This document shows positions 1,125 to 42,982 of a stretch of 64,000 nucleotides of DNA, piece after piece. Within the stretch, counting starts at the first letter, position 1. Each line of letters opens with the position of its first letter. The stretch spans positions 12,005 to 76,004 of the forward strand of contig JBBRAI010000007.1 in NCBI GenBank assembly GCA_038206915.1. Direction: 5' to 3'. Below the pieces are notes generated by a model that saw nothing but the letters and a program-made list of their open reading frames with translations, ran no database searches and was not told the origin of the DNA. Origin of the DNA: Burkholderiales bacterium (lineage in GTDB: Bacteria > Pseudomonadota > Gammaproteobacteria > Burkholderiales > SG8-39). A program made the translations under genes and the position numbers.

Positions 1125-2912
1125 TCAAAGCTCGGCAGCGCGGTTCAGGGTGCTTAGAAAGACGTCCGCCGATTGGTAGCCGATTACGCGCAGACCTTCG
1201 ATTTCCCTGCCCTGACTATCGAAAAAAATAATGCCGGGTGGGCCGAACAGGCTGAAGCGCTTGAGCAGCGCCTTGTCGTCTGCCGAATTCGCGGTGACAT
1301 CCGCCTGCAGCAGCAGCATCTGGCCCATCTTCGCCTTCACCCGCGCATCGGTAAAAGTGAAGGCCTCCATCTCCTTGCAGGAGACGCACCAGTCGGCGTA
1401 AAAATCAAGCATCACCGGCCTGCCGGGGACCTGCAGCTTCGCGTCGAGCTCGGCCGGGTTCTTCACCCGCGTGAAGCGCGTTTGCTGCGTCCCGCCCGTA
1501 CCGCCACCAACCAGGCCGGACAGCGGCCGCAGCACGTCTCTGCTGCCGGCAAACGCGCCGATTGCCAGCGCCGTGCCGGCGAGCAGCGCGAGGAAGCCGG
1601 CGGCCTTCCACAGCCGCGTGAGCGTACCGGCCTCGGGCGGCAGCGGGTCGATCGCGCGCAACACCATGGCCGAACCGACCAGCAATGCCGCCCAGGCAAG
1701 CATTTGCGCGGCCAGCGGCAGCACCGGCGACACGATGTAAATCGCCACCGCGAGCAGCATCACGCCGAAGAACTGTTTCACCGACTGCATCCAGCGGCCC
1801 GACTTGGGCAGGAACTGGCCCTCGAACACGCCGACCAGGATCAGCGGGACGCCCATGCCTATGGACATCGCAAATAGCGCGATGCCGCCCAAGGCGACGT
1901 CGCGCGTCTGGCTGATGTAGAGCAGGGCGCCGGCCAACGGCGCGGCGACGCAGGGGCTGACGATCGCGGCCGAGAACACCCCCATCAGCACCACCGCGCC
2001 GAGGCGCCCGCCTTTCAAGCGATTGTTCGCCCTGGTCATGCTCGTGTGAAAACCCACCGGCAACTGCAACTCGTACAAGCCGAACATCGACAACGCGAGC
2101 AATACGAAAACGAACGCGAAAACCGACAGCACCCAGGGATTCTGCAGCGCGGCCGACAGCAGATTGCCCGAGAGCGCGGCGGCGACACCGATGCCTGTGT
2201 AGGTGATCGACATGCCGAGGACATAGGCCGAGGACAGGATGAATGCGCGCGTGCGCGTGGCGTCGCGCCCCTCGCCGACGATGATGCCGGACAGGATCGG
2301 GATCATCGGCAGCACGCAGGGCGTAAACGTGAGCAGCACACCGGCGCCGAAGAAGGCGGCCGCGATCAGCCACAGGCTGCCCGAAGCCAGCAGCCGCTGA
2401 AAGCGCGCTTCCTCGTTGATCGACCCGGCTGCGTCCCCTGCGCGCGCATCCCCGGCCGCAGGCGCGGCCGCGGTGCTCATCGCAGCCGGGAGCGAGATCT
2501 GCGCTGTCTGAACCTGCGGCACGTAGCACACGCCCGCGTCGGCGCAGCCCTGGGAAGTCACCGCCAGCTTGAGGCTGTCCACGGCCGCGTCGCGCGTAAT
2601 CGGCAAGCGGATGCGCACTTCCTTGCGATAGGTTTCAACCTTGCCGAAGAATTCGTCGTTGTGTACGTCGCCCTGGGGAAGTTGCGCGCTGCCCAGCTTC
2701 ACCGCCGTCGGCTCGGCCTCGAACTTGAATTTGCTGCGGTACATGTAATAGCCGTCGGCGATCTGGTAGCGCACCTCCAGCGTGTCGGCGTCGAGCGCGC
2801 GCGCCGAGAACTTGAACGCGACGTTCGGCGGCAGCAACTCCTGCGCGAAGGCAAGACCGTGCAGGCTGAGCGCGAACAGCAGCGCGAAAAACAGGTGCAG
2901 TCTGGATCGCAT
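1125..2912 (-). CDS. dsbD: Thiol:disulfide interchange protein DsbD
   Basis: Signal peptide (MRSRLHLFFALLFALSLHGLAFA) and a periplasmic N-domain. Multi-TM core with paired Cys motifs (TFTPCVLPMIP, VSPCVAAPL). C-terminal thioredoxin domain DFYADWCVSCK. Start placed at ATG 2912; the track ORF extends to 2966. Confidence 0.9.
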   Translation of the reverse strand: MRSRLHLFFALLFALSLHGLAFAQELLPPNVAFKFSARALDADTLEVRYQIADGYYMYRSKFKFEAEPTAVKLGSAQLPQGDVHNDEFFGKVETYRKEVRIRLPITRDAAVDSLKLAVTSQGCADAGVCYVPQVQTAQISLPAAMSTAAAPAAGDARAGDAAGSINEEARFQRLLASGSLWLIAAAFFGAGVLLTFTPCVLPMIPILSGIIVGEGRDATRTRAFILSSAYVLGMSITYTGIGVAAALSGNLLSAALQNPWVLSVFAFVFVLLALSMFGLYELQLPVGFHTSMTRANNRLKGGRLGAVVLMGVFSAAIVSPCVAAPLAGALLYISQTRDVALGGIALFAMSIGMGVPLILVGVFEGQFLPKSGRWMQSVKQFFGVMLLAVAIYIVSPVLPLAAQMLAWAALLVGSAMVLRAIDPLPPEAGTLTRLWKAAGFLALLAGTALAIGAFAGSRDVLRPLSGLVGGGTGGTQQTRFTRVKNPAELDAKLQVPGRPVMLDFYADWCVSCKEMEAFTFTDARVKAKMGQMLLLQADVTANSADDKALLKRFSLFGPPGIIFFDSQGREIEGLRVIGYQSADVFLSTLNRAAEL

Positions 2913-35936: not shown

Positions 35937-36230
35937 TTAGGCATCCTTCGCGTGCGGCTTCGGTGCGTTCATCAGCGAGGGCGTGACGCGCGAACGCGCC
36001 AGATACTCGCGCAGTATCTTGATTGCCGAGCGGTCCAGCGTAGTTCCATGGTGCGGGCGGTGCAGCACATCCTCGTGGCCGTTGAGTTTGACGCGCAGGC
36101 GCGCGCCCGAAAGCGATTCGACTTCAGCACCCAGATGATGCAGCAGCGACTCGATCTCGCGCCAGTGGATATTGCCCGTGATCGGATCGCGGAATATCGC
36201 CTCGATCAGGTGCTCGTGCTTGTGGCTCAT
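35937..36230 (-). CDS. Hypothetical protein with HicA/YcfA-like pattern (orphan)
   Basis: 97 aa (MSHKHEHLIEAIF...). The segment LGAEVESLSGARLRVKLNGHEDVLHRPHHGTTLDRSAIKILREYL resembles the HicA beta-sheet/helix core by eye. No HicB partner is present. Confidence 0.45.
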   Translation of the reverse strand: MSHKHEHLIEAIFRDPITGNIHWREIESLLHHLGAEVESLSGARLRVKLNGHEDVLHRPHHGTTLDRSAIKILREYLARSRVTPSLMNAPKPHAKDA

Positions 36231-36513
36231 GGCGGGCGCCTCCGTACCGGAGTGGGTCTGCGCCCATGATAGCCAAGCCGGCCAGCACTGCAAGCGTCCC
36301 GGCGGTCAGGGTCAGGGGCAGGGCCAGCGTCGAGAGGAGCAGAAGCATCAACAGGCGCTGCACAGGCCTGCTCCATATCCGATGATTCTTGTCGCGCGCG
36401 GCCACGATGCGCGCTCCTGCGGGAATTCACGGACCCGGGCGGGAATCATCGCAGGCAGCACCCGATATTGGCCGCTGCCCGCGGCGATTCGCACCCTTGT
36501 GAACGCAAGCTGC

Positions 36514-36747
36514 CTATTTTTTCATTTCGTCCTTGGCCATGGAATCCTTCTTCATGGCGTCCTTCTTCATGCCGTCGTTTTTCATGCTGTCTTTTTTCAT
36601 CGTGTCTTTCTTCATGCTGTCTTTTTTCATCTCCTCTTTGGCCATGTTGTCTTTGGCCATCGCATCTTTCTTCATGTCGTCAGCGAGCGCGTTGCCGCCG
36701 GCAAGCAGCAGGCTGATGGAAAGCAGGGTTGCAGTGGTCTTGATCAT
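36514..36747 (-). CDS. Secreted methionine-rich pentapeptide-repeat (MXKDX) protein, MrpX-like
   Basis: 77 aa. Signal peptide MIKTTATLLSISLLLAGGNALA, then 11 consecutive M-x-K-(D/E)-x pentapeptides (11 Met in 55 mature residues). Confidence 0.85.
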   Translation of the reverse strand: MIKTTATLLSISLLLAGGNALADDMKKDAMAKDNMAKEEMKKDSMKKDTMKKDSMKNDGMKKDAMKKDSMAKDEMKK

Positions 36748-36815
36748 GGTGATCTCCTCGTTTAGTGGTTGGATGGGTGGACGGCGGTAAAGCCGGTGTA
36801 TCAGGGCAGCCGAGC

Positions 36816-37595
36816 TCAGCTGCCGCCGAACCAGTTGTACCCCTGGTCTTCCCAGTAGCCCCCGGGGTAGGTGTTGGTGACGAAGATCGCCTGGATGTGC
36901 TTCGGATTCTTGTAGCCGAGCTTGGTCGGCATGCGCAGCTTCATCGGAAAGCCATACTTGGGCGGCAGCTGCGCGCCGTCGTAGGTGAGCGTCAGCAGCG
37001 TCTGCGGGTGCAGCGCGGTGGGCATGTCGATGCTGGTGTAGTAATCGTCGGCGCACTTGAAGCCGATGTACCTCGCGCTGGTGTCGGCGCCGACGCGGGC
37101 GAGGAAGTCCGAAAAACGCACGCCGCCCCATTTGCCGATCGCGCTCCAGCCTTCGACGCAGATGTGGCGCGTTACCTGGTCGGTCTGCGGCAGCGCGTTG
37201 AGTTCGGGCAGCGTCCACATGCGTTTGTCGGCGACCATGCCGCCGACTTCCAGACGGTAGCCCGCCGCATCCACCTCGCGGATCTCGTCCTCGCCGTAGT
37301 AGGCGTTGAATGGAAACGGCCGTGTGATCATCGATTCTGGATAGGTCGGCGCGAGCTGATTCGGATCGAACAGCCAGCCCTGCACCCGGTCGTTGAAGCG
37401 CGACACTGTTGTCAGCGCCTGATCGACGCCGTCCTCGTCGGAGATCGCGCAGCCGGTCAGCAGCGACAGGCCGCCGAGCGTGAGTGAACGGCGCAGAAAC
37501 AGGCGTCGCGCGGGCTGCTCGAGGCGGCGCAGCGCCTCCTTCACCACGGCATCGCCGTCCAGCGTCAGTCGTTTGGAAGACTTGAGTATTTTCAT
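36816..37595 (-). CDS. Molybdopterin-dependent oxidoreductase of the YedY/MsrP (sulfite-oxidase fold) family, Tat-exported lipoprotein
   Basis: 259 aa. Twin-arginine leader ARRLFLRRSLTLGGLSLLTGC with lipobox, Mo-ligand Cys context HICVEGWS, and GFPMKLRMPTKLGYKNPKHI. Confidence 0.8.
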   Translation of the reverse strand: MKILKSSKRLTLDGDAVVKEALRRLEQPARRLFLRRSLTLGGLSLLTGCAISDEDGVDQALTTVSRFNDRVQGWLFDPNQLAPTYPESMITRPFPFNAYYGEDEIREVDAAGYRLEVGGMVADKRMWTLPELNALPQTDQVTRHICVEGWSAIGKWGGVRFSDFLARVGADTSARYIGFKCADDYYTSIDMPTALHPQTLLTLTYDGAQLPPKYGFPMKLRMPTKLGYKNPKHIQAIFVTNTYPGGYWEDQGYNWFGGS

Positions 37596-37604
37596 GTTGG
37601 CTCC

Positions 37605-38201
37605 TCAGCGGCCGCGGATCATGGCGAGCAATGTGCGTGGTACCAGCGCCACCATCGCCAGGTGCACCGCGACAAACGCGACCATCGCTGCCATGGCGAA
37701 GAAATGCACGCGGCGTGCGTTTTCGTAGCCGCCCAGCAATTCGCGCAGCAGCGGAAACTGCACTGACTTCCACAGCACCAGGCCCGACAGCACTAGCAGG
37801 ACCGCGTCGACAATCACGAACAGGTAGGCGGCGCGCTGCACCGCGTTGTAATGGCTCAGGTCGTCGTGCGCCAGCTTGCCGCGCAGCGCGTCCACTAGAT
37901 CGGCAATGATCGCGCGCGGCGACAGCGGGAAGAACTTTCGCACGATACGTCCGGTCGCGGCATTGCACAACAGATACACCAGGCCGTTCGCGGCGAGCAG
38001 CCACATCGCGGCAAAATGCCACTGGATTGCGCCGCCGAGCCAGCCGCCGAGCGTAATGTCCTTGGCGAACTTGAAATCGTACAGGGGAGAGGCGTTGTAG
38101 ATGCGCCAGCCGCTCGTGACCATGATCACAACCGCGAGCGCGTTTAGCCAGTGCGTCGCGCGCAGCCAGGCCGGGTGGACTATGCGGTCAGTCTGGTTCA
38201 T
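37605..38201 (-). CDS. Membrane b-type cytochrome (cytochrome b561 / Ni-Fe-hydrogenase b-subunit-like)
   Basis: 198 aa, 4-5 TM segments. Conserved His in TM helices (RATHWLNAL, QWHFAAMW, RRVHFFAM, VAVHLAM). 9-nt gap to the Mo-enzyme gene. Confidence 0.75.
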   Translation of the reverse strand: MNQTDRIVHPAWLRATHWLNALAVVIMVTSGWRIYNASPLYDFKFAKDITLGGWLGGAIQWHFAAMWLLAANGLVYLLCNAATGRIVRKFFPLSPRAIIADLVDALRGKLAHDDLSHYNAVQRAAYLFVIVDAVLLVLSGLVLWKSVQFPLLRELLGGYENARRVHFFAMAAMVAFVAVHLAMVALVPRTLLAMIRGR

Positions 38202-38220
38202 GTCTTCGCTCCGCCCGAAT

Positions 38221-39003
38221 TCAGGACGCTGCGCATTGGCGCGCGCTCAGAGCCTGCAGCACCCCGCCGCTGCGTTCGTCCTGCACGAACGCGACCAGTT
38301 CCAGCCGCGCGCGGTTCCAGTCCGCGGGCAGGGCGATCTCACGCTGCACCTTCGCCGCGCCCGCGACGAGGCGCACAGGTCCGATCCACGCACGCACCAC
38401 GTGATCGTGCTTGAGGGTGGAGCCGCTGTTCTCGCCGCGCGTCACGCTCGACGCGAGGCCGCTCTCGGCAAGCGCCAGATACAGCGCCGCCGGGCCGGCC
38501 GCGGCAAGTGTTTTGGCTTCGGCATCGAGTGTAAGCGAGCCATCGGCTGCGACCGCGGCGCGCACATGGATGGCAGCCGCGGCAGGCGCAGCGTTCAGTT
38601 GCCGAACCTTGTCCGCCAGCGCGCCGCGCCAGGAGCGCAGCTCCGCGCCGCCAACGAAGAACTGGGGCGTATAGACGGTGTCGTGCCGGTTGGTGTGTAC
38701 CAGCCAGCTCTGGCGCTGCTCGAACGCGCTTTGCGCATACGGGTCCTTCCAGCCGATGTAGTCCCAATAGCCGACGTGCAGGGCGAGCGGCACCACAGTG
38801 GCGGTTGGGTCCAGCACCTGGTGCAGGCGGCTGAGCTGCTGATCCGCCGGCGGGCAGCTGGAGCAGCCTTCCGAAGTATAGAGTTCTACCAGCGCCGCGG
38901 TCTTCGGACCGCTTTGCGCTTCACAGGCGGCGAAGCCCGTAAGCGGCAGGGTCGCCGCAAGCGTTGCAACCACCGTACGATGGGCGATACGACGCAGATT
39001 CAT
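38221..39003 (-). CDS. DUF1223-family secreted thioredoxin-like protein (CxxC)
   Basis: 260 aa starting MNLRRIAHRTVVATLAATLPLTGFAA (signal peptide). VELYTSEGCSSCPPAD and HVGYWDYIGWKDPY are the DUF1223 hallmarks as I recall them. Confidence 0.8.
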   Translation of the reverse strand: MNLRRIAHRTVVATLAATLPLTGFAACEAQSGPKTAALVELYTSEGCSSCPPADQQLSRLHQVLDPTATVVPLALHVGYWDYIGWKDPYAQSAFEQRQSWLVHTNRHDTVYTPQFFVGGAELRSWRGALADKVRQLNAAPAAAAIHVRAAVAADGSLTLDAEAKTLAAAGPAALYLALAESGLASSVTRGENSGSTLKHDHVVRAWIGPVRLVAGAAKVQREIALPADWNRARLELVAFVQDERSGGVLQALSARQCAAS

Positions 39004-39060
39004 GGGCAATTCGCCTCCTTTGGCAGTGAAAATCCAGCGCGCTTGTGCTCTCAGGGCTAG

Positions 39061-39087
39061 TTCGCCGGCCGCCGACGAACGGTTACA
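39061..39087 (-). promoter_or_regulatory. ECF-type promoter TGTAACC-N16-CGAA upstream of the DUF1223 operon
   Basis: Minus strand reads tgtaacc gttcgtcggcggccgg cgaa ctagcc. It lies 58 nt upstream of the DUF1223 ATG and has the same motif and spacing as the two sites at 40377-40489. Confidence 0.65.
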
Positions 39088-39141
39088 CGGCGGAGCGAAT
39101 CGCAGCCGATTCCACGCAGCGCGATTACGCCCGCGCACGGA

Positions 39142-39774
39142 CTACCTGTCGCCCCAGACCTCGTGTACCCGGGCGTCGCGGCCGCAGCCGGCGCGGTAGT
39201 ACGAGTAGCGAATCGGGTTCTTCTTGTAGTAGCCCTGGTGATATTCCTCCGCCGGGTAGAACGCGGAAGCGGCAACGACTTCCGTATACACATGCGGCAG
39301 CTTGCCGCTCTTGACCAGTGCGTCGCGGCTCGCGTCGGCGATTTTACGCTCAGTTTCGTTCTGCCAGAAGATGGCGCTGCGGTATTGCGTGCCGACGTCG
39401 CAGAACTGGCGATCTTTCACTGTCGGGTCGATGTGGTGCCAGAAGTAGTCGACCAGCTGCCGATAGCTGACTTTGGCCGGGTCGTAGCGAACACGCACCG
39501 CCTCGGCATGACCGGTGCTGCCGGCGCTGACCTGTGCGTAGGTGGGATTCGGCGTCCTGCCGCCGGTATAACCCGATTCCGCGTCGATCACGCCCGGCAG
39601 CTTCTCGAAGTCCGCTTCCAGACACCAGAAGCAGCCGCCGGCAAAAATAGCGTTCGCCGTGCCGCTGGCACCCGACGCGGCGCCCGCCGGCGCGGCGGCT
39701 GCGGCAAGACCCGCGCCGCCCAGCAGCAGCAACAACGCAGCGACAAAACCGGCCACGCGCACACCCGCCCTCAT
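39142..39774 (-). CDS. msrA: Peptide-methionine (S)-S-oxide reductase MsrA, exported form
   Basis: 210 aa. N-terminal hydrophobic leader (MRAGVRVAGFVAALLLLLGGAGLAAAAA), catalytic GCFWC, and the MsrA core GHAEAV...YHQ.Y. Confidence 0.9.
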   Translation of the reverse strand: MRAGVRVAGFVAALLLLLGGAGLAAAAAPAGAASGASGTANAIFAGGCFWCLEADFEKLPGVIDAESGYTGGRTPNPTYAQVSAGSTGHAEAVRVRYDPAKVSYRQLVDYFWHHIDPTVKDRQFCDVGTQYRSAIFWQNETERKIADASRDALVKSGKLPHVYTEVVAASAFYPAEEYHQGYYKKNPIRYSYYRAGCGRDARVHEVWGDR

Positions 39775-40286
39775 GCGCGCAACTCCGGCAGTTTATCCGT
39801 GCGCAACACGAAATTCAGCGCCACGCCGTTGTTGCAATAGCGTTTGCCGGTGGGTGCCGGACCATCGTCGAAGACGTGGCCCTGGTGCCCGCCGCAACGC
39901 GCGCAGTGATATTCGGTGCGCGGAAAGAGCAATTTGTAGTCGGTTCTGGTGGTCACGGCGCCGGGCAGCGGTCGCCAGAAACTCGGCCAGCCGGTACCAC
40001 TGTCGTACTTGGCGCTGCTGTCGAACAGCGGCAGACTGCACGCGGCGCAGACGAAGGTGCCGTCGTGCTTTTCCTGGTTCAGCGGGCTGCTGCCGGGGCG
40101 TTCCGTTGCTTCATCGAACAGCACGCGATACGCCGCCGCCGGCAGCAGAGCGGCCCATTCGGCCTTAGTCTTGCGCAGCGCCGGCCCGGCGCCATCGGCC
40201 GCGCCGGCCGCGCCGGCGTTGATTATGTGCAGTGCTGACAGGCCCGACAGGCCGAACAGCCATTTGAGGGAGCGACGACGGTCCAT
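39771..40286 (-). CDS. msrB: Peptide-methionine (R)-S-oxide reductase MsrB, exported form (Tat-like leader)
   Basis: 171 aa. MDRRRSLKWLFGLSGLSALHII leader, Zn CxxC pairs (CAAC, CARC), GWPSF and catalytic RYCNNG. ATGA overlap with msrA. Confidence 0.9.
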   Translation of the reverse strand: MDRRRSLKWLFGLSGLSALHIINAGAAGAADGAGPALRKTKAEWAALLPAAAYRVLFDEATERPGSSPLNQEKHDGTFVCAACSLPLFDSSAKYDSGTGWPSFWRPLPGAVTTRTDYKLLFPRTEYHCARCGGHQGHVFDDGPAPTGKRYCNNGVALNFVLRTDKLPELRA

Positions 40287-40376
40287 GACATTCTCCGGAT
40301 GATTCTGCCTCTATACATTTATGCGACGGCGCGCTTCACTCGGGCAGCGTTGCGTTCGGCGCGATATGGAGGCTAG

Positions 40377-40403
40377 TTCGGCGCGAACTGGCGTGCGGTT
40401 ACA
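40377..40403 (-). promoter_or_regulatory. ECF-type promoter TGTAACC-N16-CGAA upstream of msrB-msrA
   Basis: Minus strand reads tgtaacc gcacgccagttcgcgc cgaa ctagcc, about 90 nt upstream of the msrB ATG. It shares even the flanking ctagcc with the 39061 site. Confidence 0.65.
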
Positions 40404-40462
40404 TGCTGGTGCACAATTAAATCCCCGGCGGCGGGCACGTATCCGACTTTTTTCCAGCAGCT

Positions 40463-40489
40463 TGTAACAAAAGGCGTCGATGGAGCGAA
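40463..40489 (+). promoter_or_regulatory. ECF-type promoter TGTAACA-N16-CGAA (putative autoregulated sigma promoter)
   Basis: Plus strand reads tgtaaca aaaggcgtcgatggag cgaa. The -10 element overlaps codons 3-4 of the track ORF for the sigma factor. Confidence 0.55.
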
Positions 40490-41052
40490 TGCAAGGGACA
40501 GCCCGGCTGAACGCGGGCGAAAACAGGCTGAAGCTACTCCTGTTGCGCGGGCTTTCCGGCGAGGAGTCGGCCTATCACGCGTTCCTGCAGGAGTTGAGCG
40601 CGCATTTGCGCGCTTTCCTGAGGCGGCGCCTGGCGCGCTTGCCGGACGAAGTGGAGGACCTGGTGCAGGAATCGCTGCTGGCGGTACACAACCAACGTCA
40701 TACCTACGACGCGGGCCAGCCGCTGACGGCGTGGGTGCACGCGATCGCAAAGTACAAGCTGGTGGATCTGCTGCGCCGGCGTTCGAAACGCGAACTGCTC
40801 AGCGATCCGCTGGACGAGGAGTTCGGTCTGGCCGCGGCCTCGGACACGGATGCCGCGGATGCGCGCCGCGATCTGGGCCGGCTGCTGGCGCGCCTGCCCG
40901 AACGCCAGCGCCTGCCCATCGTGCATATGAAACTCGAGGGTCTGTCGGTGGCGCAGACCGCCGAGCTCACGGGCATGTCGGCCTCCGCAGTCAAGGTAGG
41001 CGTACATCGCGGCCTGAAGGCGCTGGCGGCGATGATACGAGAGGCGCCATGA
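40480..41052 (+). CDS. sigF: ECF RNA polymerase sigma factor (SigF-type, partner of NrsF)
   Basis: Sigma-70 region 2 ([20 protein letters not shown]...[19 protein letters not shown]) and region 4 ([44 protein letters not shown]). The 5' end is uncertain because of the promoter overlap. The name is inferred from the NrsF partner. Confidence 0.8.
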
Positions 41053-41690
41053 GAACCGAAGAGCTGGTCAGCATGCTTGCGACCGGTGCCGGCGCGGTAG
41101 CGCCGAACCAGGTCGCGCGCCGCCATGCGCTTGCGCTGGGATGGGGCATTCTGGGCGCCGCGCTGCTGATGGCCATCCTGCTCGGCCCGCGCCCTGATCT
41201 TGCCCGGGCGGTTCTGCTGCCCATGTTCTGGGTGAAGCTCGTGTTTGTCGCGTGCATCGCGGCGGGCAGCCTGGCCGCGGCGCTGCGACTGGCGCGCCCG
41301 GGGCGCAAGCTTGCCTGGGTGCCGGCAGCGGTGGCCGCGCCGGTGCTCGCGATCTGGCTGCTTTCGATGATCGTGCTGGTGCCAGCCGAGGCGGCGCAGC
41401 GCGAAATACTGTTCTTCGGTAGTACCTGGGACGTATGCCCGTTCCTGATCGCCACCTTGTCGGTGCCCGGATTTGTCGCGGCGATGTGGGCGATGCAGGG
41501 ACTTGCGCCCACTCGCCTGCGTCTCGCCGGCGCGGCGGCAGGGCTGTTTGCCGGATCCATGGGCGCGCTGGTGTACTGCCTGCACTGTCCGGAAATGGGC
41601 GCGCCTTTCATCGGTGTCTGGTATCTGCTCGGCATGCTGATACCTGCTGCCGCCGGCGCGCTGCTCGGTCCGCGCCTGCTGCGCTGGTAG
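41049..41690 (+). CDS. nrsF: NrsF-family (DUF1109) membrane anti-sigma factor
   Basis: 213 aa starting [17 protein letters not shown]. Six TM segments and a conserved Cys pair region (VCPF, CLHCPEM). ATGA overlap with the sigma gene. Confidence 0.8.
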
Positions 41691-41770
41691 CGCCGTTCCT
41701 TCGGCGTGCCGACCGAGCGCGGCGGCAGCCGGAAGCGATTCCGAAATGCGGTTAAACTTGCACCATTGCA

Positions 41771-42982
41771 TTGCCGGAGAACGACGTGCGCTGGCGTATT
41801 ACCGCGATCCTGCTGAACCTAGCCCACGCGATCGATCATCTGATGCTGCTGGTATTCGCGACCGCGGTTTCGGCCATCGCACGCGACTTCGGCATCGGGC
41901 GCTGGGAAGATCTCATGCCCTTTACCACCGGCGCCTTTCTCATGTTCGGCCTGGGATCCTTCCCTGCCGGGCGCCTGGGCGATTTGTGGGGCCGCCGCGC
42001 GATGATGCTGATCTTCTATTTCGGCATTGGCGTCTCAGCCGTGCTGATTGCGCTGACGCAGAATGTCTGGCAACTGGCGCTGGCGCTGGGCCTGATGGGC
42101 ACGTTTGCTTCGATCTATCATCCGGTAGGCATTCCGATGCTGCTGCGGCACACGCAAAGGCCCGGCTTTACCATTGGCGTCAACGGCATGGTCGGCAACC
42201 TGGGCATCGCCGCGGCGGCGATATCGACCGGATTCCTGATTCAGTATGTGAACTGGCGCACGGCGTTCATCGTGCCCGGCCTGATCTCGATCGCCTGCGG
42301 ACTGCTGTTCATGAAGATCGCGCCAGCCGAACAGGGCGCGCCCGGCAAGCAGGCGGTCAGGCAGATCGAACTGGCGCCGGCGACGCGAAACCGCGTGTTC
42401 CTGGTGATGACCATGCTCGCAATCACCAGCAGCATACTGTTCAACTTCACTACCAACGGCAACGGCGAATTGCTCAAGGCGCGCCTGCCGATCCTGGTGC
42501 AGCAGCCGGCCCTGCTCGGGACGCTGCTCGCCGTGGTGTACGCGCTCTCATCCGTGTCGCAGCTGGCGGTGGGCCGACTGATCGATCGCTATCCGATACG
42601 CAACGTGATGCTGGCCATCATCGCCTGTCAGGGCCCGGTGTTCCTGCTTGCGGCTTTCACTCACGGCTGGACGCTATATGTGGCGATGATCATTTTTATG
42701 GTGCTGGTGTTCGGTTCCATCCCGTTTACCGATGCGATCATCGCGCGCTTCGTCGACGACAGTATCCGCTCGCGCGTGAGCGGCATGCGCCTGGCGGTTT
42801 CCTTCGGCGTCAGCTCACTGGCCGTGTGGGCGCTGGGACCAGCGGTAAAGGCCGCCGGATTCGGCACCGCGCTGCTGGTACTCAGCGCCGTTGCGATCGG
42901 CTCGCTCTTGATCACCTGGCACTTGCCGGACGAGCAAAGCATACGCAGGGCCTCCGCGGTCCCGAGTCCGCAGACTGCCTGA
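41771..42982 (+). CDS. MFS transporter
   Basis: About 400 aa, 12 TM segments, MFS loop motif GRLGDLWGRR. Non-ATG start (TTG 41771 or GTG 41786). Confidence 0.8.
   Translation: MPENDVRWRITAILLNLAHAIDHLMLLVFATAVSAIARDFGIGRWEDLMPFTTGAFLMFGLGSFPAGRLGDLWGRRAMMLIFYFGIGVSAVLIALTQNVWQLALALGLMGTFASIYHPVGIPMLLRHTQRPGFTIGVNGMVGNLGIAAAAISTGFLIQYVNWRTAFIVPGLISIACGLLFMKIAPAEQGAPGKQAVRQIELAPATRNRVFLVMTMLAITSSILFNFTTNGNGELLKARLPILVQQPALLGTLLAVVYALSSVSQLAVGRLIDRYPIRNVMLAIIACQGPVFLLAAFTHGWTLYVAMIIFMVLVFGSIPFTDAIIARFVDDSIRSRVSGMRLAVSFGVSSLAVWALGPAVKAAGFGTALLVLSAVAIGSLLITWHLPDEQSIRRASAVPSPQTA

Follow-up and report, generated by a model that had tools for sequence, protein, structure and literature searches.

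Three ECF16-type promoters predicted around a SigF/RpoQ-type sigma factor gene in an uncultured Burkholderiales bacterium

Three sites of the form TGTAAC(C/A)-N16-CGAA in a stretch of 64,000 nucleotides (64 kb, here called the window) from a Burkholderiales bacterium are very probably promoters that are read by the adjacent ECF16 (SigF/RpoQ-type) sigma factor. One of them, P_sigF, lies at the sigma factor gene itself, while P_msrB and P_DUF1223 face two operons with genes related to methionine sulfoxide reductases (Table 1). Systems of this kind are already well described, and the window adds an ECF16 member from an uncultured betaproteobacterium whose Msr-type regulon resembles those of Azospira and Brucella. 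The positions of the transcription start sites were predicted from offsets of 6–9 nt after CGAA, borrowed from Bradyrhizobium japonicum ecfF and Cupriavidus metallidurans rpoQ.

Table 1. Promoters, promoter elements and genes of the ECF16 locus (positions in the window; start sites are predictions).
Feature	Position	Strand	Description
P_sigF	40463-40489	+	Autoregulatory ECF16-type promoter, motif with 24.7 bits; -35 TGTAACA 40463-40469, 16-nt spacer, -10 CGAA 40486-40489, extended GAGCGAATG; predicted start site ~40495-40498
P_msrB	40377-40403	-	ECF16-type promoter facing msrB-msrA, 29.6 bits (best of the window); -35 TGTAACC 40403-40397, 16-nt spacer, -10 CGAA 40380-40377, extended CGAACTA 40380-40374; predicted start site ~40371-40368
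P_DUF1223	39061-39087	-	ECF16-type promoter between msrA and DUF1223, facing DUF1223, 26.3 bits; -35 TGTAACC 39087-39081, -10 CGAA 39064-39061, extended CGAACTA 39064-39058; predicted start site ~39055-39052
Upstream T-rich element of P_msrB	40411-40418	-	Reads AATTGTGC, 8 nt 5' of TGTAACC
Upstream T-rich element of P_sigF	40448-40454	+	TTTTTTC, 9-15 nt 5' of TGTAACA
ECF sigma factor, ECF16/SigF-RpoQ type	40480-41052	+	Pfam, NCBIfam and identity to RpoQ; start uncertain
NrsF/DUF1109 anti-sigma factor	41049-41690	+	PF06532, E 8e-69, full length
MFS transporter	41771-42982	+	PF07690
msrB (SelR domain)	39771-40286	-	PF01641, E 4e-43; first gene of the P_msrB operon
msrA (PMSR domain)	39142-39774	-	PF01625, E 4e-62; overlaps msrB
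DUF1223 protein	38221-39003	-	PF06764, E 3e-55; first gene of the P_DUF1223 operon
Cytochrome b561-type membrane protein	37605-38201	-	PF01292, E 2e-26; 19 nt after DUF1223
Molybdopterin oxidoreductase, YedY/MsrP-like	36816-37595	-	PF00174, E 1e-29
Secreted Met-rich MXKDX pentapeptide-repeat protein	36514-36747	-	TIGR02953, E 6e-22

The promoter motif in the window

A sequence-only reading of this DNA had proposed a back-to-back pair of TGTAAC(C/A)-N16-CGAA promoters, and both copies were found where this reading had placed them, with an identical geometry of 16 nt between the two boxes. The outward orientation that had been claimed is borne out by the gene positions, i.e., one copy points to msrB (ATG 40286) and the other one to the sigma factor gene. 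A third copy, which had been noticed at 39061, is present as well and is encoded on the minus strand. Each of the three motifs faces the first gene of an operon.

The pattern TGTAAC(C/A)-N16-CGAA has exactly three matches in the 64 kb window compared to 0.01 matches expected from 100 dinucleotide shuffles. The shorter core GTAAC-N17-CGAA yields the same three matches only (0.25 expected in the window), and loosening the spacing to 15–19 nt adds a single further match in the window, which is intragenic and corresponds to the background level. A weight matrix derived from 178 homologous sites assigns 24.7–29.6 bits to the three sites, while the next best position of the window reaches 6.6 bits and ten shuffled windows gave top scores between 2.2 and 13.1 bits. 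Moreover, P_msrB carries features of the family that are not part of the search pattern, namely the T preceding GTAAC, a GCC within the spacer and the CTA following CGAA. For the intergenic region, a third -10 box of the SigF type (CGAC/CGAAC) was considered and discarded because it has no GTAAC at the required spacing.

That these matches merely reflect chance or base composition is extremely improbable. The fixed part of the motif is short (9–11 bases), and nothing else speaks in favor of such an origin; against it stand the three matches seen where 0.01 are expected, the intergenic location of all three sites within at most 1.5 kb of the sigma factor gene and the conservation of the motif over 80 loci. 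The earlier claim that the sites are very unlikely to be due to chance thus holds, with matrix scores lying far above those of the shuffled sequences.

Conservation of the motif among related loci

The sigma factor has thousands of relatives, of which the closest ones (up to 92% identity) originate from uncultured Burkholderiales metagenomes. For comparison, 80 loci (L001-L080; 661 kb) were taken from species-representative genomes encoding sigma factors that are 68–87% identical to that of the window; these loci come from betaproteobacterial metagenome-assembled genomes. These 661 kb contain 179 copies of GTAAC-N17-CGAA, whereas any other spacing between 11 and 23 occurs only zero to six times each, and the spacing is therefore strictly fixed. 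The motif is found at the sigma factor gene in 78 of the 80 loci, in most cases as far from the sigma factor ORF as in the window, and a divergent partner on the minus strand is present in about 75 of the 80 loci at a distance of 14–193 bp.

This variable distance bears on a second reading, according to which the divergent copies constitute one large inverted-repeat operator of a dimeric transcription factor instead of two promoters. The pair can indeed be written as an inverted repeat, TTCG-N16-GGTTACA ... TGTAACA-N16-CGAA. However, relatives differ in the gap between the halves (14 to 193 bp) but never in the internal spacing of 16 nt, solo copies exist that are always directed at a downstream gene, and start sites mapped in relatives fall just after CGAA, so that an operator is a very improbable explanation. 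Two divergent promoters are the reading followed here.

Copies that are not located at a sigma factor gene lie upstream of msrB (15 sites), DUF1223 (15 sites), cytochrome b (12 sites) or bufferin-type operons, the latter comprising DUF2282, DUF692 (MbnB-like), DUF2063 and DoxX genes. A motif at the junction of msrA and DUF1223, equivalent to the third site of the window, is present in at least six loci (L004, L006, L007, L009, L012 and L014). In L048, msrB is not followed by msrA, and the motif is located directly upstream of DUF1223.

In the aligned sites a T precedes GTAAC in 87–96%, followed by a C after GTAAC and by GCC at spacer positions 10–12. None of these features entered the search among the relatives, and the window sites share them, together with the CTA following CGAA at target promoters and the upstream T-rich element described below. 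Target promoters show an extended -10 element CGAAcTA (T in 96%, A in 92%), and sigma factor gene promoters show CAACGAATa. In the loci L001-L080, a single base thus distinguishes autoregulatory from target promoters in a systematic way.

An upstream T-rich element

Next to the -35 and -10 boxes, a T-rich element is located 9–17 nt upstream of GTAAC in the loci L001-L080, with the consensus aATT(G/T)TGCc or ATATTTTT. At the position of the P_msrB element, GCA[CA]AAT is found in 50 of 75 divergent pairs, and elements of this type also occur upstream of stand-alone (solo) target promoters. For the sigma factor gene promoters, a T-rich tract at -15 to -10 from GTAAC is present in 50–85% of 78 promoters, depending on the position. 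The element resembles an UP element, and no mention of it was found in the published ECF16 texts that were searched.

The conserved box GCACAATT (40411-40418) was also considered as a sigma-70 -10 box of the sigma factor gene, together with CTGGCG as -35 box. This was rejected because the same element, which reads AATTGTGC or ATTTTGCC on the strand of the promoter itself, is located 9–17 nt upstream of GTAAC in solo target promoters and because the sigma factor gene promoters are preceded by a T-rich counterpart. Furthermore, a scan of 36400-41800 for consensus sigma-70 promoters did not find any.

The sigma factor and its anti-sigma factor NrsF

The sigma factor matches five Pfam families, among them Sigma70_r2 (residues 39-103), Sigma70_r4_2 (residues 130-182) and Sigma70_ECF; no region 1 or region 3 family is among these five, leaving regions 2 and 4 only. 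It scores 302 bits against NCBIfam NF009188 and is 64% identical to C. metallidurans RpoQ (E 3e-68). The start of nrsF overlaps with the stop codon of the sigma factor gene (ATGA), and nrsF is preceded by a ribosome-binding site of its own, GAGAGG. Hydropathy analysis indicates six hydrophobic segments in NrsF, which contains cysteines at positions 69, 130, 177 and 180. Cys130 and Cys180 show the same 50-residue spacing as Cys129 and Cys179 of B. japonicum OsrA, a parallel in position. Against the NCBIfam equivalog for Caulobacter NrsF the protein reaches 135 bits at a cut-off of 300 bits, and it is therefore a member of the NrsF family and not an equivalog. Judged by regions 2 and 4, the overlapping nrsF gene, the six segments and the identity to RpoQ, the pair is an ECF16 (SigF/RpoQ-type) system.

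The MFS transporter gene follows nrsF on the same strand, as is also observed in 11 relatives. No terminator-like site was found between the two genes, and the MFS gene is probably the third gene of an autoregulated sigF-nrsF operon.

Target operons

The N-terminus of MsrB is twin-arginine-like (MDRRRSLKWL...), and that of MsrA contains a hydrophobic, signal-like segment; as read from sequence, the products of msrB-msrA are both periplasmic. The DUF1223 gene has a ribosome-binding site AAGGAGG ahead of its ATG at 39003. Its product contains a CSSC motif and could be a periplasmic redox partner. The cytochrome b561-type protein matches PF01292 and DUF4405, with neither a YedZ-type nor any other further family among its Pfam matches. 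The molybdopterin oxidoreductase scores 72.9 bits against the MsrP equivalog NF003767, which has a cut-off of 207 bits. The MXKDX protein is composed of about 14% methionine and 43% charged residues and has a hydrophobic N-terminus; it is similar in kind to MrpX/BcrX. A role of the DUF1223-cytochrome b561-Mo-oxidoreductase-MXKDX operon in methionine sulfoxide repair, and its placement with the hypochlorite scavenging system of the Azospira type (MrpX/YedY-YedZ), are assigned by analogy and not by family membership, because the oxidoreductase scores below the MsrP cut-off and is partnered by a cytochrome b561 instead of a YedZ-type protein. When 36000-42000 was searched against Rfam, only a microRNA match far below the threshold resulted, and the leaders therefore contain no known RNA element. 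The motif had been put forward as a directly readable regulon signature, and the three sites very probably define a local regulon with two target operons.

Among the relatives, those of the window type carry msrB-msrA, DUF1223 or cytochrome b modules. Relatives with a canonical start codon downstream of the sigma factor gene promoter (see below) mostly have no window-type msr-cluster gene beside the divergent promoter. As an example, in L030 (2431-4860) an operon of DUF2282, MbnB-like, DUF2063 and DoxX genes (bufferin/gig-type) is divergent from the sigma factor gene; L030 is the one canonical-start locus for which this operon content was checked. The regulon module next to this sigma/anti-sigma pair appears to have been exchanged among relatives.

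The start codon of the sigma factor gene

Three codons are candidates for the start of the sigma factor, i.e., ATG 40480, ATG 40489 and CTG 40507. Both ATGs are located inside the plus-strand promoter, in the spacer and in the -10 box, respectively, and upstream of the predicted start site, and therefore an mRNA starting from P_sigF cannot carry either of them. ATG 40480 is preceded by a ribosome-binding site, AAGG 40470-40473, directly after the -35 box. CTG 40507 occupies the position at which most relatives have their start codon, and no canonical distal start codon is present in the sigma factor ORF before TTG 40543. Database gene calls for the sigma factor family give 190 or 187 residues, i.e., they start at the promoter-internal ATGs. 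A leaderless mRNA beginning at ATG 40489 was rejected because the -35/-10 geometry puts the start site downstream of this ATG.

The region was compared over 79 sigma factor gene promoters, i.e., that of the window and those of 78 relatives. In 48 of these an ATG, GTG or TTG is located about 17 nt after CGAA with AAGG or GGAG ahead of it, and this codon clearly reads as the start codon on a short leader. In the others the codon at this position is CTG (as in the window), CTA, CTT, AAC, CCA, ACG, TCA, TTT, CAG or GCG. An in-frame promoter-internal ATG is found in 28 of the 31 loci that lack the canonical start compared to 11 of the 48 loci having it (Fisher p 2e-9, uncorrected for phylogeny). 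The non-canonical loci contain an AAAGG in the spacer six or seven bases before the ATG, and over the 9 codons following it the third-position variability is 1.45 bits compared to 0.9 bits at positions 1 and 2, a periodicity based on just 6 codons; the canonical-start loci do not show such a third-position pattern. Moreover, the distance between the two -35 boxes is 52 bp or more in non-canonical loci compared to mostly 42–46 bp in canonical ones. These features suggest the promoter-internal ATG as the translation start of the sigma factor in this clade, for which a longer transcript from a separate upstream promoter would be needed. Alternatively, translation might initiate at CTG 40507, or the sigma-dependent transcript might mainly serve nrsF and the MFS gene.

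These observations lead to a reading in which P_sigF is a real ECF16 promoter without full-length sigma factor as its output. Its transcript would start inside the ORF at about codon 6 and would mainly serve nrsF and the MFS gene, or would yield a sigma factor shortened by 9 residues from CTG 40507, while the full-length protein would be made from a separate upstream promoter; the feedback would then be partly negative, as more anti-sigma factor is formed on induction. The well-spaced AAGG ahead of ATG 40480, the enrichment of promoter-internal ATGs, the third-position variability confined to the non-canonical group, the wider distance of the -35 boxes and the ribosome-binding site of nrsF are in line with it, as is the sigma-independent basal expression of the sigma factor gene that was reported for Caulobacter and Brucella. 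However, a sigma-70-like promoter was looked for in the intergenic region and not found, and the only extra conserved box there is the upstream element of P_msrB. In addition, ECF16 systems were reported as positively autoregulated, the annotated ATG overlapping the start site in B. japonicum was judged to be a mis-annotation, and the small number of codons behind the periodicity counts against it as well. Taken together, this reading is unlikely but deserves some weight.

Slightly less probable, and put forward here only tentatively, is a related reading for the clade of the window, according to which the start codon and the ribosome-binding site of the sigma factor moved into the autoregulatory spacer, resulting in a sigma-dependent transcript without full-length sigma factor. 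If true, the main effect of this transcript would be more anti-sigma factor (and MFS transporter), or else it would yield an N-terminally shortened sigma factor, and the positive loop would turn into a mixed or negative one.

Relation to characterized ECF16 systems

The sequence-only reading had connected GTAAC and CGAA with SigF/ECF16-type promoters, and this link is correct by the published consensus (PMC3420878, PMC3511200, PMC8315932), by the gene pair and by the conservation. The ECF16 consensus of Staron, as quoted in PMC3420878, is tGTAACc-N16-CGAA. In Caulobacter crescentus, the prototype of ECF16, the SigF binding sequence GTAACC-N16-CGAA precedes both sigF and the divergent CC3254 operon (PMC3511200), a placement of promoters that is shared with the window. 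The regulon of Caulobacter SigF-NrsF includes a YedY homolog, and the cysteines of NrsF are important for NrsF function (PMC3511200). In contrast to the window, its adjacent target is a DUF2282-DUF692-DUF2063-DoxX operon, as in L030, and not msr.

For Brucella BcrS the motif (T/C)GTAAC-N17-CGAA was described with two back-to-back promoters, start sites determined by 5'-RACE and one promoter facing an operon that encodes a Met-rich peptide (PMC8315932). The B. melitensis BcrS-AbcS/bcrXQP system resembles the window in its back-to-back TGTAACC-N16-(G)CGAA motifs on opposite strands and in its targets, which comprise a Met-rich peptide and genes of the Msr type, and bcrS is autoregulated in addition to a basal expression that is independent of its own sigma factor (PMC8315932). 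It differs from the window in that Brucella is an alphaproteobacterium, in having one target operon beside the sigma factor gene and in the published bcrS promoter spacer, which contains no ATG. The same back-to-back layout was found for Sinorhizobium RpoE7 (PMC6180224).

In Azospira suillum, SigF-NrsF drives yedY1-yedZ1-mrpX, and SigF promoters are located on both sides of the divergent region (PMC4436054). Like the window, A. suillum PS has a betaproteobacterial ECF16 pair with promoters flanking the divergent region and a regulon with a periplasmic Mo-oxidoreductase and a secreted Met-rich peptide at its center; frequent neighbors noted for this system are msrA and msrB (PMC4436054). Unlike in Azospira, the divergent operon of the window is msrB-msrA, the third promoter would drive the DUF1223-cytochrome b561-Mo-oxidoreductase-MXKDX operon, and a cytochrome b of PF01292, without a YedZ-type Pfam match, takes the place of the membrane partner.

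The EcfF-OsrA system of B. japonicum is similar to the window in having an autoregulated ECF16 promoter with which the annotated ATG clashes: the ecfF start site is located 6 bp after the -10 box, and the annotated ATG overlaps this start site (PMC3420878). For ecfF a distal start codon was proposed (PMC3420878), whereas the window offers no canonical one upstream of the TTG mentioned above. The motif GTAAC(g,a)-N14-15-(c,t)CG(t,a) of EcfF is looser than that of the window.

RpoQ-RsqA of C. metallidurans is a further Burkholderiales ECF16 system with an NrsF-family anti-sigma factor. RpoQ was assigned to ECF16, and an RpoQ-dependent start site, TSS_1315237, was published (PMC13492112). By our own reading of the coordinates this start site maps to position 2738 of L081 (C. 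metallidurans CH34 chromid), i.e., 9 nt after the CGAA on the plus strand. As in the window, perfect divergent TGTAACC-N16-CGAA motifs are present in L081, at 2644-2669 (-) facing the gig operon and at 2704-2729 (+) facing rpoQ. On the chromid, rpoQ is followed by an NrsF-family gene and is divergent from a DUF2282-MbnB-DUF2063 operon. Differences to the window are this bufferin-type gig operon in the divergent position and the longer annotated N-terminus of RpoQ. In PMC13492112 (2026) the ECF16 consensus is given as -35 AATTCG and -10 GGTTAC, and no ECF16 motif is reported at rpoQ or gig. This consensus corresponds to the present motif in reverse complement.

Proposed mechanism and implications

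The start sites, the dependence of the promoters on the sigma factor of the window and the inducing signal are predicted here by analogy with the characterized systems. Each promoter consists of the T-rich upstream element, the -35 box TGTAAC(C/A), the spacer of 16 nt and the -10 box CGAA, extended to CGAACTA at both targets. In unstressed cells the six-helix membrane anti-sigma factor NrsF would hold the sigma factor, as in the characterized relatives. An oxidant such as hypochlorite, reactive oxygen species or a thiol-reactive metal would act on NrsF, probably via Cys130 and Cys180, upon which NrsF would release the sigma factor, and RNA polymerase together with the sigma factor would start transcription 6–9 nt after each CGAA. 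P_msrB would thereby direct the synthesis of the periplasmic MsrB-MsrA enzymes and P_DUF1223 that of the DUF1223 protein, the cytochrome b561, the Mo-oxidoreductase and the Met-rich peptide, which might serve scavenging and repair of methionine sulfoxide in the envelope. Through P_sigF the sigma factor would also act on its own operon sigF-nrsF, probably including the MFS gene.

The current understanding of ECF16 systems is unchanged by these data. For the uncultured Burkholderiales lineage the motif gives a clean and readable regulon, in which an envelope oxidant sensor would be wired to MsrA/MsrB and the further proteins of the two target operons, among them the Met-rich peptide in a sacrificial role. 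The family-wide comparison extends the published ECF16 core by the T-rich upstream element and by the distinction between CGAAcTA at targets and CAACGAATa at sigma factor genes. This may be of use for annotation, for the correction of start codons and as a source of orthogonal promoter parts. Finally, one and the same sigma/anti-sigma pair would govern Msr-type or bufferin-type operons, depending on the relative.
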